Assembly: GCA_943789065.1 (NCBI GenBank)
Contig: CALSSQ010000001.1
Coordinates: 746,426 to 810,425 of the forward strand
Length of the DNA: 64,000 nt
Reading direction: 5' to 3'
Origin: an uncultured Candidatus Actinomarinales bacterium
GTDB taxonomy: Bacteria; Actinomycetota; Acidimicrobiia; Actinomarinales; Actinomarinaceae
The notes under the pieces: model-generated
Databases searched by the model: none
What the model was told of the DNA's origin: nothing
What the model saw: only the letters and a program-made list of their open reading frames with translations
Shown here: positions 29,237-64,000 of the stretch, one piece after another
Layout: the number at the start of each line of letters is the position of its first letter
Position numbering within the stretch: the stretch's first letter is position 1
Position numbers and translations under genes: made by a program

Positions 29237-30262
29237 TTATATTTTTTTTGCAATAAGCATCTTGAACCCACCTAGACCACGATTATTGTTAATTGCCTCT
29301 AAACCAACAAGATCAGACTTGATTTTTAATTTATCTAATCCGTCAGCATTTTGAAATTTGGTTTGAATTTTTTTATAAAAAGCTTCAAAGCCGTTCAATT
29401 GTAAAAATTCTTTTTGTGTGTGGAGTTCGACTGCGTAATCTAATCTTGATAAACAGTTCTTTATACTAGAAAAATTTACATCATAGGTTATATCAGTTGT
29501 TGTTGGTTGAAGCAATGTTTCACCTGCAAGATGATGATTTTTATAGGTTCTTATAAGTGACTTATAGGGGATGCTTGACCTTTCATGAAATTCATAACCG
29601 TAATCAATTATGAGAAGATAATTAGGATTAAATCTTGATACGATACCTTCAAGATATTTTGTTGCATTTCTCTGAATCTCAATCTCAATGTCATCTAAGG
29701 GCTCAATATTGTTAGATTCTATCCAAGTTAAATTTTCAGGCCTCATGGGCGCTAATTCATAACTTAGTGAATCAGATTCTATTTTAATAATTTTTTCGAG
29801 CCATACACCATCTTTATATACACCAACAGAGCATGGTATATTATCGAGGACTTCATTCATGTATACTAAATTAACTTTATCAACTGGAATCAAATCCAAA
29901 GTTTCAAAAACATTAAATTCTTTTTGTTTCAGAATTCTGAATGCGGTATTTGATTTTTCGACAAGAAAAAGATTATTTGTTGAATATTCTTGAATCTGCG
30001 TAGCCAATGAGCCAGTACCCGCCCCAATTTCTACTACATTAGATTTAATTTTATTTTCATTCATCCAGTGTGAAATAAACTTTCCAAAGTATTTAGATAC
30101 TTCAGGTGACGTTAGGAAATCACCTTCTATGTTAGATCGAACTTTTGTAGTATTGAAGAACCCAGATTCTGAATAAAGACTTTCTTCCATGTATTCATCA
30201 AAAAATATGTCGTTGCGTTGATATTTTTCTTGAAGATGTTTTATAAAATTAAAGCTAGACAA
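29237..30262 (-). CDS. Class I SAM-dependent methyltransferase, MidA/NDUFAF7-like (COG1565-type)
   Basis: 341 aa; GDFLTSPEVSKYFGKFISHWM resembles the MidA DFxTSPE motif, VVEIGAGTGSLA resembles the SAM-binding GPGRGTL block; 5 bp downstream of nuoN on the same strand. Confidence 0.6.
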   Translation of the reverse strand: MSSFNFIKHLQEKYQRNDIFFDEYMEESLYSESGFFNTTKVRSNIEGDFLTSPEVSKYFGKFISHWMNENKIKSNVVEIGAGTGSLATQIQEYSTNNLFLVEKSNTAFRILKQKEFNVFETLDLIPVDKVNLVYMNEVLDNIPCSVGVYKDGVWLEKIIKIESDSLSYELAPMRPENLTWIESNNIEPLDDIEIEIQRNATKYLEGIVSRFNPNYLLIIDYGYEFHERSSIPYKSLIRTYKNHHLAGETLLQPTTTDITYDVNFSSIKNCLSRLDYAVELHTQKEFLQLNGFEAFYKKIQTKFQNADGLDKLKIKSDLVGLEAINNNRGLGGFKMLIAKKI

Positions 30263-35367: not shown

Positions 35368-35666
35368 TTCAACAAATCAAATTCATCAATATTTGCAGTT
35401 TTTCTATTTCTAAACAACATTAAAACAATCGCCAAACCAATCCCTACTTCAGCAGCGGCTATGGTGATAATGAAAATAGTAAAAATTTGACCCTGTAATA
35501 ATGCATCTCCTAACATTGCATTGAAGACTACAAAGTTTATATTCACAGCATTGAGGATTAACTCGATAGACAACAACACCATAACAACATTCCTTCTAAC
35601 TAAAATTCCATAAATCCCAATTGAAAATAATCCTGCTGCTGCAATTAAAAAAGGCTGAGCACTCAT
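35361..35666 (-). CDS. nuoK: NADH-quinone oxidoreductase subunit K (operon 1)
   Basis: ORF track 101 aa; 3-TM NuoK-like, AAAEVGIGLAI motif. Confidence 0.9.
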   Translation of the reverse strand: MSAQPFLIAAAGLFSIGIYGILVRRNVVMVLLSIELILNAVNINFVVFNAMLGDALLQGQIFTIFIITIAAAEVGIGLAIVLMLFRNRKTANIDEFDLLKW

Positions 35667-36181: not shown

Positions 36182-36182
36182 T

Positions 36183-38842: not shown

Positions 38843-38843
38843 T

Positions 38844-39395: not shown

Positions 39396-39879
39396 TTTGA
39401 TCTGCTTTCCATTTTTCTTTCATGTCTTCTCCTCTTATTTTTTCTTGTAGGAGAATAATTCCCTCTTGTAAAGCTTCAGGTCTTGGAGGACATCCTGGAA
39501 CGTATACGTCAACAGGGATAAGTTGATCCACACCTTTTGTAACAGAGTATGAATCCCAATATGGACCACCGCTATTTGAACAGGAACCCATAGATATGAC
39601 ATATTTTGGCTCTGGCATTTGATCATATAGTCTTTTTACTGCTGGTGCCATTTTGTCTGTGACTGTTCCAGCGACAACCATTAAATCAGCTTGTCTTGGT
39701 GATGCAGGTAGTGGGATAATTCCAAGTCTCATAAAATCATGTCTGGGTCCACTTACTGCCATAACTTCTATTGCACAGCAAGCTAATCCAAATTGGAAAT
39801 ACCACAAAGAGTATGACCTAGCCCAGTTTAAAACTGACGATATCGGTTTTGGTAATCCGAATTTATCAACTACTCCCAT
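39382..39879 (-). CDS. nuoB: NADH-quinone oxidoreductase subunit B (operon 1)
   Basis: ORF track 165 aa; N2 cluster ligands CCAIE ... [10 protein letters not shown] ... [11 protein letters not shown]. Confidence 0.93.
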
Positions 39880-40235
39880 TTCAATACATCCTTTCTAATT
39901 GCATAAATTAATCCGATTAACAAAATAAAAATAAAAACTAGCATTTCCACTAAACCAAAATAACCTAACTTCTCAAGATTAATTGCCCATGGGAATATGA
40001 ATACTGCTTCAACATCAAAAATTACGAACAATAGGCCAAAAATATAGTATCGAATGTAAGTCTGACTCCAACCTGTCCCGACGGGGTCAACACCTGACTC
40101 GTAGGTTGTAAGTTTTTCAGGAGAGGGATTATTCGGCCTGAGGATAGCTGCAATAGATGTCAAAATGAGCATAAATATAATGCCCACTGCTAACAATACT
40201 GCTACTGTTGCGTACTCCTGAAAATAAGAATTCAT
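39870..40235 (-). CDS. nuoA: NADH-quinone oxidoreductase subunit A (operon 1)
   Basis: ORF track 121 aa; 3-TM NuoA-like, first gene of operon. Confidence 0.88.
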
Positions 40236-42286: not shown

Positions 42287-43090
42287 TTAGTTTGGCTGAT
42301 ATGTTCCAGCAAATACTTGCCATGCTAGACAAGTTTTAGCAAGTAGACTCAACCATATATAGGCTCTTTCACCGTATAAATAGTCTTTCCACTTTCCTAC
42401 ACCTTTATATTGAAGAATCATATTTATTGAAAAAGTGTTAAAAAAGAAAAATATACTAACAAATATCCAGACTACGAATTGGGGAACCCCTTGAGGATTT
42501 GCATCTGTAGCAACTCCATCACCTATTAAATTGATAAAAATAAAAATCCACGGTGCAATACCAGCTAAACAACCCATGATATAAGCAGTCCAATCAACTT
42601 TTTCAGTATATTGATTGTGTACTTCCATCATCCAACCAAACCAACACATCGCAGCATTCATGACAAAAATTCCAGCTAGTGCCCAAACATCATAAATTCC
42701 TACAAGTAAAGCTATCAACACAATCATTACTGAAGCACTAATTGAGTACTCGATCCAGCGGACTTTATTAATACCTTTCATTAAATCTGCTTTATACCTG
42801 TTATAGAAAGGGCCCGATATAAGAAAATGTGCGAGTGCTGATGCCAACAAAAATGTTGCAACTGCAGGTCCGAAGTTTGATACCTCTCTCCAGATTTGTA
42901 GTTCGGGAACTAAAGCGAAGCTTGATGGATCTTCAGGAGTTCCAACTCCAATAAGTTGAGTAATTGTTAAGGGTACTGTGAAACCTGTATTTACTACGGT
43001 TCCCAAATAAAATAAACCTGCTCCTTGGATAAGGTGTACTAATCCCATTCTTAAATTAAATTTCTTAAGCTTCTGAATTTTTACTTCCAT
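42287..43090 (-). CDS. Heliorhodopsin (7-TM retinal-binding protein, inverted topology family)
   Basis: 267 aa; by-eye alignment to heliorhodopsin 48C12: LVHLIQ (His), ALAHFLI (His), RWIEYSISASVMIVLIA (counterion Glu), QYKGVGKWKDYLYGERAYIWLSLLAKTCLAWQ with Schiff-base Lys in last helix. Confidence 0.85.
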   Translation of the reverse strand: MEVKIQKLKKFNLRMGLVHLIQGAGLFYLGTVVNTGFTVPLTITQLIGVGTPEDPSSFALVPELQIWREVSNFGPAVATFLLASALAHFLISGPFYNRYKADLMKGINKVRWIEYSISASVMIVLIALLVGIYDVWALAGIFVMNAAMCWFGWMMEVHNQYTEKVDWTAYIMGCLAGIAPWIFIFINLIGDGVATDANPQGVPQFVVWIFVSIFFFFNTFSINMILQYKGVGKWKDYLYGERAYIWLSLLAKTCLAWQVFAGTYQPN

Positions 43091-46008: not shown

Positions 46009-47121
46009 TTAGAAACCTGCCTTTGCTATAAGTTCTACTGCTTTTTCTTGCCATAAAGCTAATGCAGACCAGTTCAAATCCTCAGGAGAGTTCAAACTAT
46101 CGATTTCTGGTAAAAGGGCATTTGGCGTAATACCTGGAACGAGTGGGAACTCAAATACAGTATTTGTGAAATGCTCTTGTGCGCTTGTTGAGTGTAGATA
46201 CTCAATAAATGCTATAGCTGCTGGTTTATTTTGGCTCGAAGATAAAACTCCTGCTCCAGCTGGCATGACCATTGCGCCACAACCGCCATCAAGATATATA
46301 TTTTTAACTGGGCTATCGCCATTTTCAGCTAATACTCTTAATGTGTAGTAGTGATTAATCATTCCAATGTCTAACTCACCTGCATCTGCAGCAGCAACTT
46401 GAGGGGAGTTCTTTGGATATTCTGTATATCCAAGACCATTGATGGCTTTTAACCATTCGGCGACTTTTTCTTCACCATCTGACTCAATCATGCAAGCAAC
46501 CATAGCTATGAAAGATGAGTTACCAGGTGCAAGACCAAGTCTTCCTCTAAATTTTTCATCATTTAAACCATAAATATCTGAAGGCATTTCTGCATCAGTT
46601 GTATCTCTGGTGTCAACAACAAGTGAACGTGATCTTCCAGAAGTTCCAACCCAGTACCCTCTTTGGTCTACTGCCCATGCTGGAACGTTGTCTAATACCT
46701 CAGCTGGTAAGACATCGAAAAGTCCTTCCTTGGCTACAACACCAAGACTTATTGGATCTTGTGATAAGAAAACGTCAGCTGGGCTTATTGCACCCTCAAG
46801 GGCTAAAGTACCTGCTAACGCAGCACTCTTGTCATAACGAACTTCAACTGCTACTCCAGTCTCAGCTGCGAATGCAGCTATGACGTCAGCGACTAAGCTT
46901 TCTTTTCTACCACTATAAATAACTAGAGATCCTTCGACTGCAGCTTCTTCTTCAGCTAAAGCAGCTTCTACTGCAGCATCCAAAGCAGCTTGGCTTATTT
47001 CGCCAGCCTCACCCTTTTCACCTTGTTCTCCTTGAGGGCCTGCTTCTCCGGCATCTCCACCTGCACATGCAGTAAAGACCATTAAGCAAGCAACAAGAAG
47101 GGAAATTGATTTCTTATTCAT
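46009..47121 (-). CDS. ABC transporter substrate-binding lipoprotein, Fe(3+)-type (FbpA/AfuA-like); start placed at internal Met
   Basis: MNKKSISLLVACLMVFTACAGG lipoprotein signal, Gly/Glu/Ala-rich linker, then periplasmic binding-protein fold; upstream of permease and ATPase. Confidence 0.75.
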   Translation of the reverse strand: MNKKSISLLVACLMVFTACAGGDAGEAGPQGEQGEKGEAGEISQAALDAAVEAALAEEEAAVEGSLVIYSGRKESLVADVIAAFAAETGVAVEVRYDKSAALAGTLALEGAISPADVFLSQDPISLGVVAKEGLFDVLPAEVLDNVPAWAVDQRGYWVGTSGRSRSLVVDTRDTTDAEMPSDIYGLNDEKFRGRLGLAPGNSSFIAMVACMIESDGEEKVAEWLKAINGLGYTEYPKNSPQVAAADAGELDIGMINHYYTLRVLAENGDSPVKNIYLDGGCGAMVMPAGAGVLSSSQNKPAAIAFIEYLHSTSAQEHFTNTVFEFPLVPGITPNALLPEIDSLNSPEDLNWSALALWQEKAVELIAKAGF

Positions 47122-47160
47122 AAAATATATTCCTTTTATTTGCTTATTATTGTTAACCAT

Positions 47161-47181
47161 ACTTAACATTAAATGTTAAGT
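47161..47181. promoter_or_regulatory. Perfect 10-1-10 palindrome, candidate operator upstream of the substrate-binding-protein gene
   Basis: ACTTAACATT-A-AATGTTAAGT; spacer too short for a hairpin, so protein-binding site likely; layout resembles DtxR/IdeR operators but sequence differs from consensus. Confidence 0.35.
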
Positions 47182-47467: not shown

Positions 47468-48145
47468 ATGATTAAACATATGCTCACTCAAAAAGAAATG
47501 GAAAAACTGCCGGAATCTTTTTATAAACAAGCAGTTGCAATTTTTCATCTTAATGAAGTGGGTATTGAAGTTAAGCAGACAAGAGTTGCTGAGTGGCTTG
47601 ACGTCAGCAGAGCTAACGTTTCGCAAATTACAGGAAGAATGCAAAATAGTGGCCTAATAAAATTTGAGGACGATCTTCAACTTACAGATAAGGGTTTATA
47701 TTTAGCCAAAACTGTTGCCAGGAGACATAGAATTGTTGAAAGATTTCTATCAGAAGTATTAAAACTCCCATGGGAAAAAGTTTATGCGGAGACTTCTAAA
47801 TGGGAGAATATACTCAGTCCAGTTACTGAAAAAGCAATGCTTTCTATACTCGGCAATCCAACTACTGGACTTTTTGGGAATCCTATACCCTACTCTAAAT
47901 ACAAGAAACTAGAAACTACAAATCTTTTAAATGTACAAAAGGACAGAAATTATTCAATTAATAAAATAACGGAAGAATTAAAAAGAGATGCTTCCATGAT
48001 TAGTTTTTTACAAGAAAATAAAATAGTCCCAGGTTCAAAAATTATTATTGCTGATGCAAATGAATTCTCAATTACTGTAAGTACTGATAACAAAAAATTT
48101 TTTGGTTTAGACCAATATATAGCTGAAAGAGTTTTCGTGAACTAA
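47468..48145 (+). CDS. DtxR/IdeR-family metal-dependent transcriptional regulator with C-terminal SH3-like (FeoA) domain
   Basis: 225 aa; N-terminal wHTH (VAEWLDVSRANVSQITGRMQNSGLI), dimerisation/metal-binding region, C-terminal extension; divergent from iron ABC operon. Confidence 0.8.
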   Translation: MIKHMLTQKEMEKLPESFYKQAVAIFHLNEVGIEVKQTRVAEWLDVSRANVSQITGRMQNSGLIKFEDDLQLTDKGLYLAKTVARRHRIVERFLSEVLKLPWEKVYAETSKWENILSPVTEKAMLSILGNPTTGLFGNPIPYSKYKKLETTNLLNVQKDRNYSINKITEELKRDASMISFLQENKIVPGSKIIIADANEFSITVSTDNKKFFGLDQYIAERVFVN

Positions 48146-50751: not shown

Positions 50752-51552
50752 CTAAATCCTATAAAACCGATAGCCAAAAATAATACTATCTTTCCTGCTT
50801 ACAAGAAGTACATCCCCTCCAATTAAACCATCTTGATAAGGATTACCATAAGCACCAAAGGAAGAGATATTGTCATCGATCCACAAAAAGAAGTCATTTG
50901 TGCCTTTTAATGAATTTGCTAGATATTCAATTGCCATAAGACCGCCACCAAAAGCCCATGCCATTGATGATTTACCAGTATATGCTCCAAGGGCAAAGCC
51001 TAAAACGCCAAAACTTACCCCAGCTAGAGCTCCCTGTAGTGTTGCTTTCATAAGAGGAATGTAATCAAGTGTTTGAGTAAGCTCCATGGTTGCAATTGGA
51101 ATAAACATTATATTTGTCCATGCAAAGCATACAAACAAACCAAAAAACACAGCTAACAGTGATTGTGTAAGATAAACTGTTGTGCGAGTCATTGGTAAAG
51201 CCGCAACAAATTCGAAAGTGCCGTCTTCCTCGGCTTTTGATCCAAGTTTGTTTAAAAGAATTATTGTAGCTATTCCAATTAAAATAGGCACAAAAGGAAT
51301 CATAAAATAAGTTGTTACCATTCCTTCTAAGGTAAAAACATTGTCCCAATCTGAAATTCCTAGTAAGTTCATCATCGTTTCATTTTCAGACATACCCCTA
51401 AAAGCTTCTCGTTGAGTATCAATAAGTAAACCCTCTACACTTGTGTTTGCAAAAGCTAGTGGAAGAATCAATAAATACAATCCAGGAGCAATTGCCCAGT
51501 TTATAATAAATTTTCTTGGGACTGTCACCATATATTTCAAGTAATTAAACAT
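50752..51552 (-). CDS. ABC-2-type exporter permease
   Basis: 266 aa, 6 predicted TM; start overlaps stop of upstream ATPase gene. Confidence 0.7.
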   Translation of the reverse strand: MFNYLKYMVTVPRKFIINWAIAPGLYLLILPLAFANTSVEGLLIDTQREAFRGMSENETMMNLLGISDWDNVFTLEGMVTTYFMIPFVPILIGIATIILLNKLGSKAEEDGTFEFVAALPMTRTTVYLTQSLLAVFFGLFVCFAWTNIMFIPIATMELTQTLDYIPLMKATLQGALAGVSFGVLGFALGAYTGKSSMAWAFGGGLMAIEYLANSLKGTNDFFLWIDDNISSFGAYGNPYQDGLIGGDVLLVSRKDSIIFGYRFYRI

Positions 51553-52265
51553 TAACCCTCTCTCTTGTCATAAAATTTAAAAAAGGCATCTTCTAAATCT
51601 TCACCCTGTTCTGCAGCCTTGCTTGAAAACGTCTCATAAGATTCATCATATACTTTTGCACCATCTCGCAATACGGCCATTGAATCTGCAACTTTTTCGA
51701 CCTCAGAAATAATATGTGATGATAAAAGTATTGCAGCACCATTGTTTGCAAATTCTTTAATAATTTCAAAAAAAGTTCTTTGATGAAAAGGGTCTAAACC
51801 TGAAGTTGGCTCGTCTAAAATTAATGCCTTTGGCTTGTGAAGTACTGCGAGTATCAATGCTACTTTTTGTCTGTTACCTTTTGATAATTCTTTAATAGTT
51901 TGATCAACTTCCAATTCAAACTTTTCTGCTAATTCCATTGCATAATCAGTTGATTGACCTCTCATATCAGCGCCAAGTTTAAATAAGGATTTAGAATTTA
52001 AATTTTGTGGAAGTTGAGGATCTCCAGGTAAATATCCTATTATTTTCTTTGCTTCAACAGGATTTTCAATTGTATTTATTTCCTCAACTGAAAGAGATCC
52101 TTCTGAGGGAATTAAGAAACCCATAAGACTTCTCATTGTTGTAGATTTTCCAGCCCCATTAGGACCTAGAAGCCCTTTAACCTCACCATTATCAACAGAG
52201 ATATTTATATCTCCTACACCTTTTCCATTTTTGTATCTCATTGTGAGATTTTTAATTTCAATCAC
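51552..52265 (-). CDS. ABC transporter ATP-binding protein (exporter type)
   Basis: 237 aa; Walker A GPNGAGKST, signature LSKGNRQKVALI, Walker B LILDEPTSGLD. Confidence 0.88.
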   Translation of the reverse strand: MIEIKNLTMRYKNGKGVGDINISVDNGEVKGLLGPNGAGKSTTMRSLMGFLIPSEGSLSVEEINTIENPVEAKKIIGYLPGDPQLPQNLNSKSLFKLGADMRGQSTDYAMELAEKFELEVDQTIKELSKGNRQKVALILAVLHKPKALILDEPTSGLDPFHQRTFFEIIKEFANNGAAILLSSHIISEVEKVADSMAVLRDGAKVYDESYETFSSKAAEQGEDLEDAFFKFYDKREG

Positions 52266-52465
52266 AATTTATTTTATACATAATTAAATATTTACTTCAT
52301 AGAAATAACTGAGTATTTCAAACAATTGAAATTATTCTTCTGAATTTTGATTCTTTTGTTTATTTCTTAACCAAGTTAAAAGCAAAGCTGGAACTAAAAA
52401 GAAAAGAAGCTCATCCCAACCCCCTTGATGATGAAAGTTTGGGGGTGGTATTATTTTTACTAACA

Positions 52466-53938
52466 TTAGAGGTAATTTTGAACTACCCATCGGGAAATGT
52501 TTATGAGGATATTTGGAAACAATCCTAATGTAATGGTTAAGCCAGCAAGTACACCAACGGAAATTTTATCATTCAATTTCAATTGAATCGGTGGAACGCT
52601 GTTCTCAGGTTTATCTATTGCGGCAATCCATATTGGCTTCAAATAAAAGTAAAAACCTGCAACAGTTGATAGCATCAGTGCAAAAACTAGAATATATTTT
52701 TCATATGACCACAGATTGGTGATAAGAATAAATTTCGATACAAATCCACTTGTTAGAGGCAGTCCAGCAAGGCCTAACATAAAAATACTAAAGCATATAC
52801 TCAAATATTTATTTTCTATAAACAGGCCCGAAAGATTTTCCATGGAGAAATCTGATGATAGCTCACCAGTAATTACTGAGAATATAAGGAAGATTCCAAT
52901 TAACTGAACAATATAAGCAGCAAGATAAAATAATGAAGCACTTGTTCCATTTACTCCAGAAGTTATTCCTGAAAGAATAAATCCAGATTGAATTACTCCA
53001 CTGTAAGCAATCAATCTTTTCATGTCCGTTTGGACAGTTGCAAATAGTGAGCCTATAAGAATTGAGAGTATTATTATTGCAGAGAAAAATAATTCGAACT
53101 TATCCATTACCAAACCGAGAGAAACTATACATAGCCTTGCTAGTACAACAAAAGATGCAACTTTTGCTGTAGCGGCCATAAACCCTACATAGCCTGTGGG
53201 TGATCCTTGGTACACATCTGGGGCCCATGACTGGAAAGGGGCTGCTGCTACTTTAAATAACAGACCAATTATGAGTAATAAAATACCGACGAGTGTTGTT
53301 AAGGGAATGTTTTCAATCCCAATGAAGGAGATAGCAATAGTTGTTTCGTAGACTCCAGTAATTGAGAGGGATACATACATTAAAGAGATTCCATATACCA
53401 AGACACAGGATGCTAAAGAACCTAGGAGGAAATATTTAAGAGAGGCTTCATTACTTAATAAACTACCTTTGTTGATCCCAGCTAAAGCGTATAAACTAAT
53501 TGACCCAATCTCAAGTCCAATAAAAAGCATCATGAAATTTTCAGAATCAACCATGAGCATAAATCCTGCGGTACTCATTAAGGTGAGAATTATAGCTTCT
53601 GTTGTTTTGTCCTTTAGTTCAAAAGAGGAATTCCAAATTGGATAAAAATTTAATAAAAGAACTAAGCCAAGTAAAACATTACCAAAAAGTGAAAATTCGT
53701 CGAGAAGAATTTTTTCTGAGAAGTATGATGAAGGGCCCGCTGTTGAAAATAATCCAAATTTTAAAAATATAGTAAATAGTGTCATAAATATTCCACTAAT
53801 AGTCACTACTTTTTTGACATTGTCAGAAGTATTAATGGTTATAGTGCAAAACAACAATACCAGAGCTGTTCCCACTAAAGCCAATGTTGGTCCGATAACT
53901 ATCCAGTTAAGACCAATAATCTGTGAGACTGTGTTCAA
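52466..53938 (-). CDS. nuoN: NADH-quinone oxidoreductase subunit N (operon 2)
   Basis: ORF track 490 aa; distinct sequence from operon-1 nuoN. Confidence 0.88.
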   Translation of the reverse strand: MNTVSQIIGLNWIVIGPTLALVGTALVLLFCTITINTSDNVKKVVTISGIFMTLFTIFLKFGLFSTAGPSSYFSEKILLDEFSLFGNVLLGLVLLLNFYPIWNSSFELKDKTTEAIILTLMSTAGFMLMVDSENFMMLFIGLEIGSISLYALAGINKGSLLSNEASLKYFLLGSLASCVLVYGISLMYVSLSITGVYETTIAISFIGIENIPLTTLVGILLLIIGLLFKVAAAPFQSWAPDVYQGSPTGYVGFMAATAKVASFVVLARLCIVSLGLVMDKFELFFSAIIILSILIGSLFATVQTDMKRLIAYSGVIQSGFILSGITSGVNGTSASLFYLAAYIVQLIGIFLIFSVITGELSSDFSMENLSGLFIENKYLSICFSIFMLGLAGLPLTSGFVSKFILITNLWSYEKYILVFALMLSTVAGFYFYLKPIWIAAIDKPENSVPPIQLKLNDKISVGVLAGLTITLGLFPNILINISRWVVQNYL

Positions 53939-55437
53939 TTTAAACCTCCGCTAAATAATTCAACTACATTCGTAATTATTTGTGCATCATTTAATACATA
54001 ACTTTCAATAAAAGATGGGTATACACCAATAAATAGCATTAAAACCAAAAGTGGTATCACTGAAACCAGCTCTCTAGTATCTAAATCATGTAAGTTTTCG
54101 TTTTCTTCATTATTAATTTCACCTGTAAACATCCTTTGATATGCCCATAACATGTAAATTGCCGCAAGAACCACACCGAAGGCAGAAATGGCTGATAATA
54201 ATTTATACGTACCAAAACTTCCCATTAGAATCATAAATTCTCCTACAAAACCATTTAATCCGGGAAGTCCAATAGATGCAAAAGATGTAAATAGAAAAAT
54301 TGCAGCGTATTTAGGCATTGTAATTTTGAGTCCTCCAAAATCAGAAATTCGTCTAGTGTGACGTCTTTCGTAAACAAAGCCAACTAGCATGAAAAGCGCT
54401 CCAGATGTTAATCCATGATTTACCATTTGAATAATTGCGCCCTCAAGGCTTAAAAGATTACCTGAGGATATTCCAAGCATTACAAATCCCATGTGACTAA
54501 TTGATGAGTATGCTATCAGTTTTTTGATATCTATCTGTGCAATCGCTACAACAGCTCCATATATAATTCCAATGACAGATAAGATAGCAATTATGTCTCT
54601 GTACTCTAAGAATCCTTCTGTGAAAAATGGTATTGATACTCTTAAAATTCCGAATGCGCCCACTTTTAATAACACTCCAGCTAATAATATACTTCCAGCT
54701 GTTGGGGCTTCGACGTGCGCATCTGGAAGCCAAGTATGCAAAGGAAAAAGAGGAACTTTAACTAAAAATCCAAATGTGAATAACAGAAAAAGTGCTTTAG
54801 ATTGTTGGGAAGTAAAATTTAAATTAGATAAAGTTACATAATCTAAAGCTAATGTACCGGTCTGTGAGTAACTTATAACTCCGGTATAAACAGTCCCTAT
54901 AAATATAAATATGGAACCAAAAACTGTATAAATTATAAATTTAATTGTTGCATATCTTCTATTGTCTCCACCCCAAATACCCATTAAAAAATACATAGGG
55001 ATCAATATTGCCTCAAAAAATATGAACAGAGAGAGTAAATCTCCACTCAAGAAAACACCATTAACAGCAAAGTGTAAAACTAATATAGAACCAATAAAAC
55101 CCTTACTTTTTGAATAATTTTCTGTAACCGAAAGAAAGGATAGAAGAACCAATATTGATGTTAACGACAATAAAAGATGGGACATTCCTGAAAAACCTAA
55201 ACTAATCTTTATTCCATAAGAACTTATCCAGTTTATAGAATCAAATTGTTGGTAGGAATCCTTGCTATTCTCATTTGAAAATAAATATAAGCACACGCTA
55301 AATGGAATGATTGAAAGAAATATTGCTAAAGGTTGAAATAGCTCAAATCTCTTTTTTGGCATTAGAAAAATGACCACTGCTCCAAATAGTGGAAACAAAA
55401 TAAGAGTATAAATTAAGCCACTCAATTTGATACCCAT
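53935..55437 (-). CDS. nuoM: NADH-quinone oxidoreductase subunit M (operon 2)
   Basis: ORF track 500 aa; WLPDAH motif. Confidence 0.9.
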   Translation of the reverse strand: MGIKLSGLIYTLILFPLFGAVVIFLMPKKRFELFQPLAIFLSIIPFSVCLYLFSNENSKDSYQQFDSINWISSYGIKISLGFSGMSHLLLSLTSILVLLSFLSVTENYSKSKGFIGSILVLHFAVNGVFLSGDLLSLFIFFEAILIPMYFLMGIWGGDNRRYATIKFIIYTVFGSIFIFIGTVYTGVISYSQTGTLALDYVTLSNLNFTSQQSKALFLLFTFGFLVKVPLFPLHTWLPDAHVEAPTAGSILLAGVLLKVGAFGILRVSIPFFTEGFLEYRDIIAILSVIGIIYGAVVAIAQIDIKKLIAYSSISHMGFVMLGISSGNLLSLEGAIIQMVNHGLTSGALFMLVGFVYERRHTRRISDFGGLKITMPKYAAIFLFTSFASIGLPGLNGFVGEFMILMGSFGTYKLLSAISAFGVVLAAIYMLWAYQRMFTGEINNEENENLHDLDTRELVSVIPLLVLMLFIGVYPSFIESYVLNDAQIITNVVELFSGGLN

Positions 55438-57311
55438 GGTGTAGCAATAAATAGCCCGATTAGTAGAAGCATAAAAAATCCAAAATAAACAACATAGCTT
55501 CTTACGAGACCATTCTGTGATCTTGAGACTTTTTGTGAGGAGTTGTAAAACAAACTAGATATTTTGTTAACTAAGCCATCAATCAAGAGCCCATCAACAA
55601 CAACAGCGGTTTTTCTAGAAAATGATTTCATACCCTTTACAAATATGACTTCACCAAATTTGTTTAAATATAGGGTATTTGAAGACAGCTCTTTTATTTC
55701 TTCTTTGAGTGGAATCTTGACTTTAAAATATGCAAGTATATCAACAATATATATCAGATAAGCAAGCAATAAACCTGTAAATCCAGCACCTATCGAAACT
55801 ACTGCGAGGATAATCAATGTAATCCCCTCAGGAAGATGCGTTATGTCTACATAATGTAGTGTTTCCTCTAGGACTTTTTCTAATCCGTGGAAAAAAGGAG
55901 TATTAATAAATCCAATAAAGAATGAAAATATGCCCAATACAATAAGGGGCCTTACCATCGCTTTTGGTGCCTCATGAACTTCACTGATGTCGTTTCCAGT
56001 TTCTTTGTGAAATATTAATAACCAGTGTCTTCCCATATAGAAAGCTGTCATAAAAGCAGCCAATAATGAGAGAGCCCAATACCCGTAATAGAAGCCACCA
56101 TTTGCAAAAGTGGAAGCGAGTATTTCGTCTTTTGACCAAAAACCTGCAAGTGGAGGGATTCCTGATATTGCTAATGTACCTATACCCATCATTGCAGCGG
56201 TAATAGGCATTTTTGTTTTTAAGTTCCCCATTTTATGAATATTTTGCTCGTGATGCATCTCGTGAATTACAGCACCTGCCCCCAGGAATAGGAGAGCTTT
56301 AAAAAATGCGTGAGTTACTAAATGAAAAATTGCTGCAACATATGCCCCTGATCCTATAGCAATAAACATGAACCCTAATTGAGAAATTGTGGAGTAAGCC
56401 AAGACCTTTTTTATATCATCTTGGTTAATTGCAGAAAAAGCTGCGATCAAAGCAGTCAACAGTCCTGCTGTAATGATGATTAGTTTCCCCGTTTCCGAAA
56501 ACTGTAATATTGGTGAGATTCTTACAAGCATGAAGACACCTGCCGTAACCATTGTCGCTGCGTGTATTAAAGCACTGGCCGGTGTGGGTCCTTCCATTGC
56601 ATCTGGTAACCAACTAAAAAGTGGAAACTGTGCAGACTTACCAAATGCTCCAATAATAAAACAAATTACAATAATGCTTAAACTTTCACGATTCCCATTT
56701 AAGACTTCAGAAAAGACTTTTTCGTAATTGAATGTTCCAAAGGTGTTCAACGTCAGCATTAATCCAACTAGGAACCCAAAATCTCCTATACGATTGAGAA
56801 TGAAGGCTTTGTTTCCAGCTTTTGCAGCTGACTGTTTTTTTGACCAGAATGATATTAAGAGATAGGAACTCAGTCCAACTAACTCCCAGCCAAAAAACAT
56901 CACTAAAAAATTTCCCGACATAACTAATAGCAACATAGAAAATACAAACACATTAAAATATATAAAATATTTGGAGTAATTCTCATCTTTACTCATGTAC
57001 GATGTTGAAAAGATTTGAATGACAACTGATAGCCCTGTTACAAGAAGCATCATGATTCCAGAAAGACCGTCCAAAGTAAATTCAAATAATATTTCTGGAC
57101 TTGGAATCCATGTAAATAATTCTAAGTGAATAGGCTTGAACTTATCTGAAAGAAGTAGACCAAACATTCCGCAGGCTGTTGCAAAAGATAGAAGTGCTGA
57201 GTTAATTGTTAAAAAATTTAGTAAAAGTTCATTTACTAAATTTGAAATAATCTTAATCCCAATGGCTGTTAACAATGGTAAAAATATAATTACTAAAAGT
57301 AAATTTTCCAC
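55422..57311 (-). CDS. nuoL: NADH-quinone oxidoreductase subunit L (operon 2)
   Basis: ORF track 629 aa; WLPDAMEGPTPASALIHAATMVTAG. Confidence 0.92.
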   Translation of the reverse strand: MENLLLVIIFLPLLTAIGIKIISNLVNELLLNFLTINSALLSFATACGMFGLLLSDKFKPIHLELFTWIPSPEILFEFTLDGLSGIMMLLVTGLSVVIQIFSTSYMSKDENYSKYFIYFNVFVFSMLLLVMSGNFLVMFFGWELVGLSSYLLISFWSKKQSAAKAGNKAFILNRIGDFGFLVGLMLTLNTFGTFNYEKVFSEVLNGNRESLSIIVICFIIGAFGKSAQFPLFSWLPDAMEGPTPASALIHAATMVTAGVFMLVRISPILQFSETGKLIIITAGLLTALIAAFSAINQDDIKKVLAYSTISQLGFMFIAIGSGAYVAAIFHLVTHAFFKALLFLGAGAVIHEMHHEQNIHKMGNLKTKMPITAAMMGIGTLAISGIPPLAGFWSKDEILASTFANGGFYYGYWALSLLAAFMTAFYMGRHWLLIFHKETGNDISEVHEAPKAMVRPLIVLGIFSFFIGFINTPFFHGLEKVLEETLHYVDITHLPEGITLIILAVVSIGAGFTGLLLAYLIYIVDILAYFKVKIPLKEEIKELSSNTLYLNKFGEVIFVKGMKSFSRKTAVVVDGLLIDGLVNKISSLFYNSSQKVSRSQNGLVRSYVVYFGFFMLLLIGLFIATPWVSN

Positions 57312-57314
57312 TAA

Positions 57315-57623
57315 CTAACCTCTGGAAGTTCTTAGTAAGTCCACAGATGCTGAAGATTGTTTTTTAAATATTGAAACTATTATGGCCAAACCTACAACTA
57401 CTTCAGCAGCAGCCACCACTAGAACAAAAAATACGGAGATTTGTCCTTCTATTGTTCCAAAATGTTTTGACGCAGTTATGAATGTTAAATTTACAGAATT
57501 AAGCATAAGCTCTATGCACATAAACATAATCAATGCATTTCTTCTAATCATCATCCCCAGGAAGCCGATTGAAAATAAGATAGCGGCTAATGTTAAATAC
57601 CAGTCTGTTGAAACCTCTATCAT
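57315..57623 (-). CDS. nuoK: NADH-quinone oxidoreductase subunit K (operon 2)
   Basis: ORF track 102 aa; NuoK-like. Confidence 0.9.
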
Positions 57624-58144
57624 TTTGGTTTCCTTACTTTTGTATCATAAGCTAAAGCAATAGCTGCAGCTGTAGCAACAATAAGTAATATTGAAATTAT
57701 CTCAAATGGGAGAACCCATTCAGTAAATAGACTTGCAGCAATTAAATCCGGTGTACCCTCTAGGCTATACTCGACTGCAGGAAAGTAGAGATCCCACTTA
57801 AAACCAGAATTTACAACAACAAATGAAACTAGACCAATCAAAATAAAAAGGGTTCCTGAGACCAGAAGGGTTTGACCTTTAATTTCTTCTCTTGTTTGTT
57901 CAGGCTTATCAACACCGATCATCATTATCACAAATAAAAATAAAGTCATTACAGCCCCGGCGTAAACTAGCATTTGGACCATAGCCACAAAGGTTGCATT
58001 CAGAGTGATATAAATTATTGCAAGTGATGCGAGTGTTAAGACTAAACCCATTGAATTGTGAACTGGATTTTTAGCGAATATAACTATTAAAGCTCCTAGA
58101 ATTACTAGACCTGCTGGTACTGCAAAAAGTAGTAGTTCTAACAC
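57620..58144 (-). CDS. nuoJ: NADH-quinone oxidoreductase subunit J (operon 2)
   Basis: ORF track 174 aa; operon position. Confidence 0.85.
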
Positions 58145-58149
58145 TTTTT

Positions 58150-58764
58150 TTACTCTTCTTCCATTGTTTGGCCTTTTTCTGGTTCTCTTTCCCCATAGCC
58201 CAGGGAATTAGTCCATCCAATAACATTTTCAAAATCTGGATTACCATTAGGAGCTGTTGCTCTCATCCAACCATCAATTTTTGTTAACTCTTCTGGATTT
58301 GTTAAATTTGTTTGTTCTTCGTGAGTATTGGCTGAACCATCATCTTTAACAAGCAATACAGATTTATCAAATACTGCCTCAGATCGATCTGCAACACTCA
58401 TTTCAAAAAGTGAAGTCATTGTTATTGCCTCTGTGGGACAAGCCTCTACACAAAGGCCACAATATATACACCTCAACATATTTATTTCATATATGAAGCC
58501 ATATCTCTCGCCTGGACTTACTGGGTTTTCTTCAGGATTATCCTCACCCCTTACATATATACATTGTGCGGGGCATGCTCCAGCACAAAGCTCACAACCA
58601 ATACACTTTTCCATACCATCTTCATATTTGTTAAGAACATGTCTTCCATGAAAACGTTGGGGTTTTTCTCTAAACTCTTTCGGGTATTTATCAGTTACAG
58701 ATTTTTTAAATAACTCTTTAAATGTTACTTTTAATCCTTTTAGTAAGTCGTATCCACTACTCAT
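58150..58764 (-). CDS. nuoI: NADH-quinone oxidoreductase subunit I (operon 2)
   Basis: ORF track 204 aa; CIGCELCAGACP and CIYCGLCVEACP 4Fe-4S motifs. Confidence 0.93.
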   Translation of the reverse strand: MSSGYDLLKGLKVTFKELFKKSVTDKYPKEFREKPQRFHGRHVLNKYEDGMEKCIGCELCAGACPAQCIYVRGEDNPEENPVSPGERYGFIYEINMLRCIYCGLCVEACPTEAITMTSLFEMSVADRSEAVFDKSVLLVKDDGSANTHEEQTNLTNPEELTKIDGWMRATAPNGNPDFENVIGWTNSLGYGEREPEKGQTMEEE

Positions 58765-58767
58765 CTT

Positions 58768-59865
58768 TTAACTCCATGGTAAGCCAAACTCTCTAACTCC
58801 TAAAACAATTGAAGATAATAAAAGCCATACTAGTGAAATCGGAATTAGTCTTTTCCAGCCCAGTTCCATCAATTGATCATATCTCAATCTAGGTAGGGTT
58901 GCTCTTATCCAAACATATATAAATAACAAAGAAAAAGTTTTAACTCCGAGCCAAACGGCTGGCATAAATGCTGAAATGAATGGTGGTAAGAATCCTGAAA
59001 AAGTTGGGCCTAGCCATCCGCCTAAAAAGAATGTAGCTGTTATTGCACACATGTTAAACATGTTTATATATTCGGCAAGAAAAAACATTGCAAAGCGAAA
59101 TCCGGAATACTCAGTATGAAATCCTCCTACCAACTCTTGTTCGGCTTCAACTAAGTCAAATGGTGCTCTATTTACCTCTGCGACAGATGCTATAAAAAAT
59201 ATTGCAAATGCTATGAACTGTGGAAATATATTCCACTTAGGAATAAAGCCAACAATTGAATCTAGTATAGGAATAGGGCTTGATAGAAATCCTGATTGAC
59301 TTTGAACTATATCAGTCATTGACATAGATCCTGAATAAAGTATTACTGGAACTAAGGCTAACCCCATAGCGGCTTCATAAGAGATCATCTGTGCAGAAGC
59401 TCTGACCCCACCAAGTAGTGGGTATTTCGATCCTGAAGACCAACCGGCAAGAACAACACTATATACAGCTATTGATGATAGAGCTAAGAAGAATAAGACG
59501 CCTACGTTAATGTTTGCTCCTACTAAATCTACATTTACGGCTTCTCCCTGTATAACTAAATCAATGCTTGGCCCAAGAGGAATAATCATAAATATTAAGA
59601 ATGATGGTACCAATGCAAGGATAGGAGCTAATAAATACATTGCTCTGTCAGCTTTTAAAGGAAGTATTTGCTCTTTTAGAAGTAGTTTTACTGCATCAGC
59701 AACTGTTTGCAAAATTCCAAAAGGTCCTGCCCTATCTGGTCCAACTCGTGATTGCATACCAGCTACTAACTTTCTTTCGAGCCATATAAGTAAAATTGTG
59801 TTGGTTAATAAAAGCCCTAAAATCAAAGCTGCTTTTGTTACTCCAATTATTAAATCAGTTGACAC
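58768..59865 (-). CDS. nuoH: NADH-quinone oxidoreductase subunit H (operon 2)
   Basis: ORF track 365 aa; NuoH-like. Confidence 0.9.
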   Translation of the reverse strand: MSTDLIIGVTKAALILGLLLTNTILLIWLERKLVAGMQSRVGPDRAGPFGILQTVADAVKLLLKEQILPLKADRAMYLLAPILALVPSFLIFMIIPLGPSIDLVIQGEAVNVDLVGANINVGVLFFLALSSIAVYSVVLAGWSSGSKYPLLGGVRASAQMISYEAAMGLALVPVILYSGSMSMTDIVQSQSGFLSSPIPILDSIVGFIPKWNIFPQFIAFAIFFIASVAEVNRAPFDLVEAEQELVGGFHTEYSGFRFAMFFLAEYINMFNMCAITATFFLGGWLGPTFSGFLPPFISAFMPAVWLGVKTFSLLFIYVWIRATLPRLRYDQLMELGWKRLIPISLVWLLLSSIVLGVREFGLPWS

Positions 59866-60607
59866 TTAAATCCTTCATATTTTTTGTCTCTTTGAGATCA
59901 AAATCTTTAGTAGAGTCTAATTTTTCGAATCCTCTTCTGTTAATTGGAGCTAAAACAAGATTGTCTGGCAAAAGATTATTCAATTTTATATTCACAAAAA
60001 TAGATGATGAGCCTTGAGTTAAAGTAGCAACATTGGACTTTATCCCATATTTGTCTAAAGTAAATTCACTCAACTCGATGAACCTTTCAGAACCTAACAT
60101 TGAAATTGATGGTGAATTAATTTGAGTACTTGAATCTCCATAGAGTCTTTTTACCATCAAAAGAGACGGACTGTCTTGATCTATATCCCTGATATTTAAA
60201 TTAATTTCTTTTTGATTTAGTATTCCAAAAAGATTTGATGGTTTGTTAAGATTATCAAATGTGGGTAATGCTTCTGTCTTTGTAAATTGACTCGCTAGCT
60301 CACTGTTTAGTTCGTTTACACTGTCATAGTTAATATCTTTTCCAAGCGATTGAGCAATCATTATTAAATATTCCCATTCAGAAAGAGTTGAGCCGGGGTC
60401 CGGAAGGATTTTATTTTGCTTCATAACCCTCATTTCCATATTTGTTATCGTCCCCTCTTTTTCACCAAAAGCAGTTGTTGGTAATATCAAATCAGCTAAT
60501 TCTGTTGTTTCATTTTTAAAAATATCAAGTGAAATAACATAGTCTGTATCTTCAAGAAGATCTTTTAATTTTTGATCCAAAAAATGATGAGTTAACTGGG
60601 TTTGCAC
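59855..60607 (-). CDS. nuoG: NADH-quinone oxidoreductase subunit G, C-terminal fragment (gene split by frameshift)
   Basis: ORF track 250 aa in a different frame from the N-terminal part; the two ORFs together make a normal ~795-aa NuoG. Confidence 0.75.
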   Translation of the reverse strand: MQTQLTHHFLDQKLKDLLEDTDYVISLDIFKNETTELADLILPTTAFGEKEGTITNMEMRVMKQNKILPDPGSTLSEWEYLIMIAQSLGKDINYDSVNELNSELASQFTKTEALPTFDNLNKPSNLFGILNQKEINLNIRDIDQDSPSLLMVKRLYGDSSTQINSPSISMLGSERFIELSEFTLDKYGIKSNVATLTQGSSSIFVNIKLNNLLPDNLVLAPINRRGFEKLDSTKDFDLKETKNMKDLSVN

Positions 60608-62189
60608 CTATAGTGAACACAATATTTTTATTTGAATTTTCATATTCAGTGCAGAATTCATTTAATCCCTTTATCTGGTCAATGTGTTGTATTGCTCCAA
60701 AAGTATTCGCTTTACTAAAACAGTTAAATACCTTCAGGTCGGAAACCTTTTGTAAATGATTTATAAGAGTATCTAGTGAATCTTTTTTTTGTAATGGAGT
60801 AGATTTTCCAATAATTGTAGTTACCTTTTTACTATCGATAATATCTTTCAGTTCTTGAATATTGCTTAGACTTGTTTTTAATTCAAAATTATTGGAAACA
60901 ATTTCAGCACCAAGATAGAGGTCTGCAAGACTCTCTAAAGCTGTATTGGTGTGTCCGAATACAACGAGCTTAACTCCGTTTTTAACTGCTTTTTTGATTC
61001 TAAGAAATAGTACTGGTAGGTTATCTTTAATATCCTCTGCCCACACAACGATTGCATCAGAATTATCCAGATCTTCGAAAGTAGCACTTGTATATTCCTC
61101 ACTAAAATATCCGTTATAAATATGATCATCAGCAAAGTAGACATTAGATTTGTCCTTACTTAAAAATTCATTTCTATTTAGGGAGTTAGCAAATTTGTTG
61201 ATTGCAAAATATTCTTCATTTGTGCTGTTTGCTCCAATGATAAACTTTATATCTGGGTTGTCTAAGTCCTTAATCTTATTTTTGATCTTTTCAATTGCAT
61301 CTGAGATATTGATAGTCTGATAGTCTTCATTTTCTCTTGAATGAATATTTAATAATCTATTTTCTGAGTGCAAATATTCAAAATTATATCTTCCTTTATC
61401 TGAAAGCCATCCTTGATTAGTAAATTCATTATCTTCACCAAGTATTCTTAACATTTTATTTTGAGATACATTTAACTCAACGGAACATCCTAACGAACAA
61501 CAATTACATGTTGAAGACACTTTTTTTAAATCCCATGGTCTTGCTTTAAATCTGTAACTAGTTGCAGTTAGTGCCCCAACTGGGCAAATTTGAACAGTAT
61601 TTCCTGAAAAGTAAGATTTAAAAGGTTCGTCAGGAAAAGTATTAACTTGTGTTTTATTTCCCCTTTGGATGAATTCAATTAAAGGGTCTCCGGAAATTTC
61701 ATCAGAAAACCTGGTACATCTCGCACATAAAATACACCTCTCTCTGTCAAGTAATACGATGTCTGAAACAGGAATTGGTTTCTCAAAATGTCTTTTTTCC
61801 TCAATAAATCTTGATTCACCTGGTCCATAAGCCATTGTCTGATCTTGAAGGGGGCATTCTCCTGCTTTGTCACAGATAGGACAGTCAAGGGGGTGGTTGA
61901 TGAGTAAAAACTCTAGAACACCTTCTTGAGCTTTTTTAACAGTATCAGACTCTGTTTCGACAATTAATTCTTCACTTACCTGTGTTGTACAAGAAGGTAC
62001 TAAAGCTTTTCCTCTAGGTGTATCAATTTCAACCAGACACATTCGACACATACCGACTGGATCTAATCTTTTATGCCAACAAAACCTTGGTATATGAATA
62101 CCAGAATCCTCACATGCCTCAATTAGGAGTTGACCCTGTTTTCCTTCAAGCTGTTTTCCATCAACGGTAAAAGTTACTTTTTCGTTCAA
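60552..62189 (-). CDS. nuoG: NADH-quinone oxidoreductase subunit G, N-terminal fragment (2Fe-2S and 4Fe-4S domains)
   Basis: ORF track 545 aa; Cys motifs CxxxxxxxxxxC...C and HPLDCPICDKAGECPLQD; ends shortly after TIGANP motif. Confidence 0.85.
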   Translation of the reverse strand: MNEKVTFTVDGKQLEGKQGQLLIEACEDSGIHIPRFCWHKRLDPVGMCRMCLVEIDTPRGKALVPSCTTQVSEELIVETESDTVKKAQEGVLEFLLINHPLDCPICDKAGECPLQDQTMAYGPGESRFIEEKRHFEKPIPVSDIVLLDRERCILCARCTRFSDEISGDPLIEFIQRGNKTQVNTFPDEPFKSYFSGNTVQICPVGALTATSYRFKARPWDLKKVSSTCNCCSLGCSVELNVSQNKMLRILGEDNEFTNQGWLSDKGRYNFEYLHSENRLLNIHSRENEDYQTINISDAIEKIKNKIKDLDNPDIKFIIGANSTNEEYFAINKFANSLNRNEFLSKDKSNVYFADDHIYNGYFSEEYTSATFEDLDNSDAIVVWAEDIKDNLPVLFLRIKKAVKNGVKLVVFGHTNTALESLADLYLGAEIVSNNFELKTSLSNIQELKDIIDSKKVTTIIGKSTPLQKKDSLDTLINHLQKVSDLKVFNCFSKANTFGAIQHIDQIKGLNEFCTEYENSNKNIVFTIGANPVNSSFFGSKIKRSS

Positions 62190-63475
62190 CCTATTACTAC
62201 TTTCTTTGGTAGTAAAACTTCAACTTCTGATCTAAAGTCTTTCATTAAAGACACAATCGATGCAGTAGCAGAAGGTCCAAGCGGACATATAGTTGTCATC
62301 TTTGGTGGCCAGGTGAGTCCCGGTGAAATATTATCACAGACGTCAAGTAGTAGGTCTATATCTGAAAGTCGTCCTCTGCCGGAAGCAACTCTTTCAAGTA
62401 TATTTTCAAGCCAAGTAGTTCCCTCTCTGCATGGAGTGCATTGTCCACAAGACTCATGCGCAAAAAAGCTTACTAAGCTTTTTGCTGCTAAAACTAAATT
62501 TGTATCTTCATCCATCATTACGACTGCTCCAGAACCAAGCATGGACCCCTCGTTTGCAACGTCATCAATTGTCATTTTGACATCGAGTTGATCTCCACGT
62601 AACCATGGAGCTGACGCTCCACCAGGAATGTATGCTTTAATGGCTTTATTTTTAACACCTTTGCCTAAAGTGTCTACGAACTCTCCAAATGAAGACCCCA
62701 TCTCTATTTCGTAGTTTCCAGGATTGTTTATGTGTCCAGAAAGACTGAAAATTCTAGTCCCTGTTGAACCTTCAACTCCTAAGCTTGAATAATCTTTTCC
62801 AGAGTTACTCATTATCCATGGAACAGAAGAGATAGTCTCAACATTATTTACAAGCGTTGGTTTGTTATATAGACCTTTTACTGCTGGAAAAAATGGTGGT
62901 TTTAATCTAGGCTCACCTCTTCTACCTTCTAGTGAGTTTAGTAAAGCGGTTTCTTCTCCACATATATAGGCTCCTGCACCAAGGTGCACCACAATGTCCA
63001 AGTTCATAGAAGATCCAAATATATTCTTTCCTAAATATCCCTTTTCATAAGCTTCCTCAATAGCACTTTGAACTCTTCTTGCCGGCTTTGCGTATTCACC
63101 TCTTATATATATGAAAGCCTTTGAAATATTTGCGGCAAAACATGTGATTATCATTCCTTCAATTAATTGATGTGGATCTCTTTCAAGAAGAATTCGATCT
63201 TTAAAAGTTCCGGGCTCAGATTCATCACCGTTTATAACAAGGTATCTTTCTTCATCTTCAGCTAAAAAGCCCCATTTGACTCCTGTAGGAAAACCAGCTC
63301 CTCCTCTACCTCTAATGTTAGAATCTTTTATCTCTTGGAGTACTTCTTCAGGGGTACCAGACTTAAGTACTTTTTTAACAGATTCATATCCTCCATTTTT
63401 TTCATAGGATTTCAGAGAGTGGCTGTCTTCAGGATTTTCTCTCATATGTTTGGTCAGAAGAAGGGTTTCTTTCAT
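62186..63475 (-). CDS. nuoF: NADH-quinone oxidoreductase subunit F (NADH/FMN-binding)
   Basis: ORF track 429 aa; GRGGAGFPTG and 4Fe-4S ESCGQCTPCREG motifs. Confidence 0.95.
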   Translation of the reverse strand: MKETLLLTKHMRENPEDSHSLKSYEKNGGYESVKKVLKSGTPEEVLQEIKDSNIRGRGGAGFPTGVKWGFLAEDEERYLVINGDESEPGTFKDRILLERDPHQLIEGMIITCFAANISKAFIYIRGEYAKPARRVQSAIEEAYEKGYLGKNIFGSSMNLDIVVHLGAGAYICGEETALLNSLEGRRGEPRLKPPFFPAVKGLYNKPTLVNNVETISSVPWIMSNSGKDYSSLGVEGSTGTRIFSLSGHINNPGNYEIEMGSSFGEFVDTLGKGVKNKAIKAYIPGGASAPWLRGDQLDVKMTIDDVANEGSMLGSGAVVMMDEDTNLVLAAKSLVSFFAHESCGQCTPCREGTTWLENILERVASGRGRLSDIDLLLDVCDNISPGLTWPPKMTTICPLGPSATASIVSLMKDFRSEVEVLLPKKVVIG

Positions 63476-64000
63476 TTTTTCTCCTTTGATGTGTCATAAG
63501 TTTGAAAACCTGGAACAGGGCTAGTTGCTCCATTGTTATCTGCGATAGCCCAGTCAAAAGACTTCACTCCACCAAATTTATCTTGAAGCTCATCTGCAAC
63601 TACTATTTCAGGTTCTTCTTCTTTAAGCCACTTGCACAAATCTACAGCTTTATCAGGTGTTAGGCCTTCGACAGTCTCATAATTAATTTGAATTGCAGGT
63701 GCTCCACCACACGCGCCAATGCATTCAACAGACTCATAAGTAAAGAAATTTTCATCATCTGTTTCATTGTTACTTAGCCCTGTAAAATTTTTAACACTAT
63801 TAATTACATCACTTGAGTTACTTATCTCACAAGAAATTGATTTACAAACACTGAGTAAATATTTACCTGTTGGCTCCTGTTTGTACATTGAATAAAAAGA
63901 CGCAACCGATTGGACTTGGACTTCTGTTATCCCAATAAGTCCGCTAATTTCAACAATTGATTCATTTGAGATATATCCATCTTTATCTTGAGCTAAATAA
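63472..64000 (-). CDS. nuoE: NADH-quinone oxidoreductase subunit E (5' end beyond window)
   Basis: Reading frame stays open to the window end (..LAQDKDGYISNESIVEISGLIGITEVQVQSVASFYSMYKQEP..); CxxxxC...CGACGGAP 2Fe-2S motif; the ORF-track Met at 63888 is internal. Confidence 0.85.
   Translation of the reverse strand, partial: YLAQDKDGYISNESIVEISGLIGITEVQVQSVASFYSMYKQEPTGKYLLSVCKSISCEISNSSDVINSVKNFTGLSNNETDDENFFTYESVECIGACGGAPAIQINYETVEGLTPDKAVDLCKWLKEEEPEIVVADELQDKFGGVKSFDWAIADNNGATSPVPGFQTYDTSKEKK

Follow-up and report, generated by a model that had tools for sequence, protein, structure and literature searches.

In the genome of an uncultured bacterium belonging to Candidatus Actinomarina, the gene for the NuoG subunit of complex I is read as two open reading frames, and the question that this locus raises is whether nuoG is broken in any living cell or whether the break arose when the sequence was assembled. 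The window, by which we mean the whole stretch of DNA that was analysed (64 kb, ~35% GC), contains the following features relevant to this question.

52466..63888, minus strand: visible part of the canonical nuo operon, in ORF order nuoE, F, [G], H, I, J, K, L, M, N
60552..62189, minus strand: N-terminal nuoG ORF, 545 aa, the first 542 residues being the same as in intact relatives of 777 aa
59855..60607, minus strand: C-terminal nuoG ORF, 250 aa counted from GTG 60607
60562..60566, minus strand: nuoG lesion, +1 base (coding strand ATT-AAAA-G-AT; plus strand C 60562, TTTT 60563-60566)
60579..60584, minus strand: A6 run (T6 on the coding strand), whose length does not differ between the window and any intact relative

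The initial annotation had described NuoG sequence in two minus-strand ORFs lying in different frames and overlapping at 60552-60607, and this description is accurate; the overlap measures 56 bases, and deletion of a single base at any position within it produces one ORF. Residues 1-542 of the N-terminal ORF are true NuoG, comprising the Fe-S cluster domains and the start of the molybdopterin-like domain, while its final three residues (RSS) and the stop codon are the product of reading on past the frameshift. In the C-terminal ORF the opening 15 codons are out-of-frame overlap, and NuoG sequence begins only with the GAT at 60562-60560 (DLLEDTDY..., 235 aa). The repaired protein is accordingly 777 aa in length and not ~795 aa as first calculated, the 18-codon overlap having been counted twice. 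It differs at 3/777 residues from a database protein (P0007) annotated as 'NuoG [Candidatus Actinomarina]'. Two ORFs that each match NuoG, and a repaired product so close to P0007, show that the split is not a chance pattern. The order of Pfam domains in the repaired protein is 2Fe-2S (Fer2_4), NADH-G 4Fe-4S, Fer4_Nqo3, Molybdop_Fe4S4 and molybdopterin-oxidoreductase-like, and its best match of solved structure is the NuoG of Mycobacterium complex I (8e9g_G, E = 1e-106). The gene sits between nuoF and nuoH in a nuoA-N operon, as seen both from the order of ORFs in the window and from the gene tables of three related contigs (L001-L003), and no further lesion was found in the canonical nuo genes of the window, all others of which are full length.

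The break had been attributed to an A6 homopolymer, and the exact position of the extra base bears directly on this. The A6 run had been placed at 60569-60574, whereas it lies at 60579-60584; on the plus strand 60569-60573 is T5 and 60563-60566 is T4. Alignment of the window with the intact relatives L002 (GCA_028475125.1) and L003 shows that the relatives read through the run in the upstream frame (...NSSFFGSKIK), and that window and relatives diverge not inside A6 but at 60562-60566. At this point the coding strand of the window reads ATT AAAA GAT CTT, where the relatives have ATT AAA GAT CTT or ATT AAA AAT CTT; put otherwise, ATT-AAA-GAT of the relatives has become ATTAAAAGAT. The junction is therefore not ...SSFLDQKLKDL..., as had been supposed, but ...GANPVNSSFFGSKIKDLLEDTDY..., i.e. 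...GANPVNSSFFGSKIK-DLLEDTDY.... Removing a base at the site originally proposed (near 60569) does regain an open frame, but the peptide so obtained is wrong, the homologues showing a different junction.

In favour of a miscall of length in the A6/T6 run, an open frame does follow base removal there, and errors of this kind do occur in sister contigs, for example where A7 is read as A6 in the nuoI-nuoJ spacer. Against it, both T6 (60579-60584) and the neighbouring A5 (60569-60573) have the same length in the intact relatives, the peptide SSFFGSKIK is read through T6 in the upstream frame, and the difference in length is found 13-17 bases further along the gene. The alignments with relatives refute the homopolymer mechanism, and we regard it as exceedingly improbable. 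Of the options initially offered, a sequencing or assembly error is still the best supported, but both the mechanism and the place assigned to it were wrong. The nuoI-nuoJ spacer itself (58145-58151) has A7 in the window and in short-read metagenome-assembled genomes and A6 in all ten contigs of the ERZ1064xxxx/ERZ1065xxxx records, a difference that changes the called start of nuoJ (191 versus 174 aa) and that has the look of a homopolymer undercalled systematically across this set of records.

NuoG is encoded by one uninterrupted ORF in the relatives and not in the window (545 + 250 aa). A search of a large protein collection returned >120 entries at 98-99% identity, every one of them 777 aa long, with junctions reading SKIKDIL, SKIKNLL, SKIKDLL or SKIKNIL, so that the intact protein runs ...SSFFGSKIK[D/N][L/I]LEDTDY. 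The sequence across the intact junction is GSKIKDLLEDTDY, and a tryptic cut at IK would yield junction peptides such as DLLEDTDYVISLDIFK or NLLEDTDYVISLDIFK. Orthologue comparison, which had been suggested at the outset, extends the result to more distant relatives: the GTDB Actinomarinales representatives (L006-L022; 97%, 88%, 86%, 72% and 54-56% identity) each gave one continuous tblastn match over residues 1-777, with the exception of two matches cut at or near the end of the contig or of the match. Single-cell genomes (AG-/AH- isolates) among the species representatives, which are of other species, are intact where covered, and 9/10 sister long contigs carry an intact 777-aa nuoG. No relatives were found that share the split and conserve each of the two ORFs on its own. 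One lead towards a conserved split, a set of ~25 proteins of 304 aa from a clade at 55% identity, was rejected, N-gaps in scaffolds being their cause. In that Ca. Actinomarina clade, several short-read scaffolds (L086-L089, 2946-4915) have an N-gap at the same place in nuoG, giving rise to many 304-aa database 'proteins', and the gap may point to a stretch that assembles with difficulty.

These comparisons also bear on the idea that full-length NuoG is made from the two frames as they stand, either by programmed +1 frameshifting of the ribosome at AAA-AGA or by transcriptional slippage there. A Lys-tRNA paired with AAA could in principle move onto the overlapping AAA within A-AAA-G. The shift is, however, absent from every orthologue compared (99% to 54% identity), the site has neither a stop nor a hungry codon (the 0-frame TGA comes three codons later), and the sequence GGA TCA AAA ATT AAA AGA TCT TCT TGA holds no upstream Shine-Dalgarno-like stimulator or GGAGG-like motif. 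For transcriptional slippage to be efficient, A4 is much too short a run. The initial annotation had already ranked programmed frameshifting low, and we find it extremely unlikely. A basecalling error linked to methylation was also considered, the extra base lying directly 5' of GATC; it was set aside as unnecessary, comparable events at three other sites described below (50798, nuoH and L110) being without GATC.

The extra base falls on a site that is polymorphic in the population. At codon 543 the common alleles are AAA-GAT (Asp) and AAA-AAT (Asn), with Asp in 74/120 and Asn in 46/120 near-identical 777-aa proteins, and three further SNPs lie within 15 bases. Three haplotypes can be told apart by the residues that they encode here: DIL (GGATCCAAAATAAAAGATATT), NLL (GGATCAAAAATTAAAAATCTT) and DLL (GGATCAAAAATTAAAGATCTT). 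The window and one sister contig, L098, read GGATCAAAAATTAAAAGATCTT, which matches the NLL allele except for a G added at the A/G SNP. In a 13-sequence alignment the extra column is a G adjoining the A/G SNP column; the window and L001/L098 carry ATTAAAAGATCTT, and intact relatives carry ATTAAAGATCTT, ATTAAAAATCTT or ATAAAAGATATT. The 31-mer diagnostic of the frameshift allele is TTGGATCAAAAATTAAAAGATCTTCTTGAAG, the intact-allele 31-mers being TTGGATCAAAAATTAAAAATCTTCTTGAAGA and TTGGATCAAAAATTAAAGATCTTCTTGAAGA. The lesion may be described either as the Asn543 allele (AAA AAT) with an additional G at 60562 or as the Asp543 allele (AAA GAT) with an additional A, and under either description both alleles of a common A/G SNP stand in tandem. 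The flanks of the window alternate between DIL-like and NLL-like sequence within 300 bases, at each variable site of the two nuoG fragments the window has an allele that is also present in intact genes, and there are no window-private substitutions in the 9.9 kb around nuoG. Judged by these sites, the window would seem to behave as a consensus of common alleles.

We hold it very probable that the nuoG frameshift is an assembly artefact, produced from collapsed strains at the consensus or polishing stage and present in no cell. We favour this reading, drawn from sequence comparison, because of where the extra base lies and its falling on a SNP, the repetition of the same signature at other sites and in other long contigs (see below) and the intact state of the gene in relatives. 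The window comes from a metagenome contig of ~1.02 Mb, in which Actinomarina strains that are 99.5-99.9% identical would have been collapsed into one sequence, and the source assembly was probably made from long reads. Reads carrying the minority allele may have been aligned to the draft with a gap and not with a mismatch, and the consensus would then have retained both A and G (AAA-A-G-AT), with the gain of one base and the splitting of the ORF. Flye has been found to merge strains ~98.7% identical into consensus contigs (PMC8302730). If this account is correct, the NuoG of the organism should be a normal protein of 777 aa, and its 14-subunit complex I should work.

Strain collapse of this kind should leave indels that fall on population SNPs and whose inserted base is the other allele, and like indels should be seen elsewhere in the contig and in its sisters; both were found. 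A census of the whole window against relatives, carried out in four blocks over the 64 kb, gave exactly two indels in the window, that in nuoG and the following.

50798, minus strand: second +1 insertion, in ABC-2-type permease ORF 50752..51552

The alleles at 50798 are GTA-GTA-GGA and GTA-ACA-GGA, and the window has GTA-A[G]CA-GG, in which both alleles of an A/G SNP are again present. The insertion alters the last 22 residues of the permease (266 aa versus 274 aa); one intact 274-aa version of this protein occurs on 399 contigs and the frameshifted version on two. A check by Pfam of ten candidate overlapping ORF pairs in the window revealed no other split gene. The same signature is seen in nuoH, where the alleles TCACGAG and TCGAGAG have given TCGACGAG, again +1, in 4/10 sister contigs (L098, L099, L101 and L103) that belong to different nuoG haplotype groups. 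There nuoH is split into 44 + 314 aa at 3899-4997 of these contigs (window equivalent ~59750), and the 314-aa product is found in ENA only, on ten contigs; nuoH of the window is intact. In a 440-kb JGI contig (L110, 3300046163), an A/G SNP with the alleles CCAA|GG and CCAG|GG has become CCAAGGG (+1, window equivalent ~324). The same contig has the gene for ribosomal protein L14 split by a deletion from A4 to A3 (window equivalent ~3663), and both L110 frameshifts are further spurious frameshifts in long contigs. Finally, in L093 (GCA_943840565.1) ~20 insertions of one or two bases lie in 1.3 kb of haplotype divergence (window equivalent ~51000-52320) and fragment an ABC ATPase, a permease and nuoN; this stretch looks like a chimeric consensus of two haplotypes.

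Enumeration shows that 399/29,718 (1.34%) of the one-base insertions possible in the region would mimic the retention of both SNP alleles. The signature is present in both window events and in both other events that were fully resolved (nuoH and L110), and the chance of four independent coincidences is ~1e-7 to 1e-8; for the two window events alone it is ~2e-4.

In ORF 29237..30262, at ~29690, there is an in-frame (ATTGAG)n tandem repeat of 6 bases, of which L095 has one unit more than the window and L096, and this copy-number difference is the only natural-looking indel among the relatives. At ~47193, between 46009..47169 and 47468..48145, a ferrochelatase presence/absence polymorphism totals 1.1-2.1 kb, with one ferrochelatase gene in L092 (7693-8718), two in L094 (6646-8718) and none in the window, L090, L091 or L093. 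A 267-aa ORF at 42287-43090 on the minus strand has sister-contig homologues that match Pfam PF18761 (Heliorhodopsin).

The alternative to be weighed most carefully is that of a real and recent one-base insertion, segregating in the Actinomarina population and making nuoG either a fresh pseudogene or the source of a NuoG composed of two polypeptides. The exact 545-aa product is found on five contigs, all of at least 0.2 Mb and in NCBI/ENA only, one of which, 1,019,454 bases long, is evidently the window's own record. A second carrier (L001/L098, ENA ERZ10646655 contig_4280, 855 kb) is 99.77% identical to the window and has the same extra base; set side by side, the identity of the window is 99.72% to the intact L103 and 99.76% to the frameshifted L098. 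Ten long contigs from the ENA analysis series ERZ10645735-ERZ10646685 are 99.5-99.8% identical to the window, and sister contigs bear names of the form contig_N / scaffold_N, the naming style of Flye. The same +1 is therefore present in the window and in at least three to four other contigs from other, separately assembled data, just as an inherited allele would be, and the window is otherwise clean with few other errors, its A7 in the nuoI-nuoJ spacer, for instance, matching short-read assemblies; both observations run counter to an artefact. The downstream ORF, on the other hand, exists in at least three protein variants (P0136, that of the window, P0137 and P0143), and the same +1 must therefore stand on different haplotypes, which argues against a single recent insertion.

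No frameshifted NuoG was seen among short-read, JGI or Logan-derived proteins; intact alleles, by contrast, occur on hundreds of contigs. At the DNA level, the frameshift-allele pattern gave 0 matches in JGI contigs; a pattern covering both alleles gave only two intact matches there, which makes for a thin control, and 0 in GTDB representatives. Because the pattern was too specific to one haplotype, the DIL allele having different flanks, these scans carry little weight. The allele is thus confined to assemblies of the long-read type, a finding that must be read alongside this thin JGI control and the preference of short-read assemblers for majority alleles. These assemblers keep the majority path, so that a real allele present at 10-20% could be missing from short-read contigs, and the argument from distribution is weakened because of this suppression of minority alleles. 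The lesion was likewise not found in independent accurate data (short reads, single cells) within the collections searched.

A preprint also lends some weight to a real insertion: it reports ~5.5 frameshifted genes per genome in ONT-assembled Actinomarina genomes, and frameshifts without long homopolymers, or recurring across genomes, are there regarded as biological in many cases (bioRxiv 10.64898/2026.04.03.716425). As a pseudogene, a truly broken nuoG would leave cells reliant on a second, 11-subunit Nuo-like complex or on other dehydrogenases, and the window does contain a second Nuo-like operon without nuoE, F and G. This operon, at 30268-40235 on the minus strand, has 11 genes (homologues of nuoA, B, C, D, H, I, J, K, L, M and N), lies ~12 kb downstream of the canonical operon and shows no break in any of the relatives seen, to judge by the gene tables for L090 and L095.

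Several features of the gene itself speak against a real insertion. The extra base is exactly on a SNP and is the other allele, a coincidence with a chance of ~1.3% per event that recurs in all events examined. Neither nuoG fragment contains a private substitution or a second lesion, and in the 9.9 kb including nuoG no further disabling change and no excess of private or non-synonymous changes was found. The break, at residue 543, falls inside the molybdopterin-like domain (Pfam 290-608) and not at a domain border, and the C-terminal ORF lacks an evident ribosome-binding site, no Shine-Dalgarno-like sequence being seen in the window before GTG 60607. The same logic would make nuoH a broken gene in 40% of the sister contigs, and in a genome so streamlined this is implausible. 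Genuine pseudogenization, the second option of the initial annotation, therefore finds little support: there is no further decay, the lesion is confined to very long contigs and spread over several haplotypes, and like insertions occur elsewhere. We judge a real segregating insertion to be unlikely. It is slightly less likely again that the +1 is real at roughly 10-20% in the population, with some cells devoid of an intact NADH-oxidizing module and making use of the second complex, encoded 20 kb away, or of a two-polypeptide NuoG split inside the molybdopterin-like domain.

If nuoG was split by collapse of strains during assembly, as we think very probable, annotation of the organism should record nuoG as intact, not as a pseudogene, and complex I as complete with its 14 subunits. 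The case then has very little biological weight, and what it offers is a lesson of method. Frameshifts outside homopolymers need not be biological when they lie in long metagenome contigs in which strains were collapsed: those described here sit on SNPs, keep both alleles and recur across assemblies, and so come to look 'inherited'. This bears on surveys in which recurrent non-homopolymer frameshifts are classed as real pseudogenes (bioRxiv 10.64898/2026.04.03.716425), to which the nuoG case would add another route by which such frameshifts arise. A simple filter is to ask whether an indel adjoins a population SNP and whether the inserted base is the other allele. Were the +1 real, one of the smallest free-living bacteria would include some cells without an intact NADH-oxidizing module of complex I.

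Comparison with known systems places the nuoG case as follows. In prfB-type +1 frameshifting, as here, a change of frame by +1 is needed for the full protein; the nuoG site differs in not being conserved in relatives and in having neither a stop at the shift site nor an upstream Shine-Dalgarno-like element. The nuo pseudogenes of Mycobacterium leprae represent genuine loss of complex I genes in a reduced genome. They resemble the present case in that a nuo gene is frameshifted in a small actinobacterial genome, but here nuoG has only one lesion and no additional substitutions, the window's other nuo genes are undamaged and close relatives have the intact gene. Homopolymer errors in nanopore, 454 and Ion Torrent data resemble the nuoG case in that an ORF of an AT-rich genome is interrupted by an indel of one base; in those errors a long run changes in length, whereas here the neighbouring runs of 5 and 6 bases are correct and the lesion can be written as a G placed between two A's. 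Strain-collapsed long-read assemblies, such as metaFlye contigs, polished or not, are the closest parallel. We found no paper in the literature describing the exact signature of both SNP alleles kept in tandem, and the read-level mechanism for nuoG is one that we infer. In common with such assemblies, the nuoG case has an insertion at a polymorphic site that corresponds to the alternative allele, recurrence in sister assemblies from the same population, restriction to very long contigs and flanks that are a mosaic of co-occurring haplotypes.
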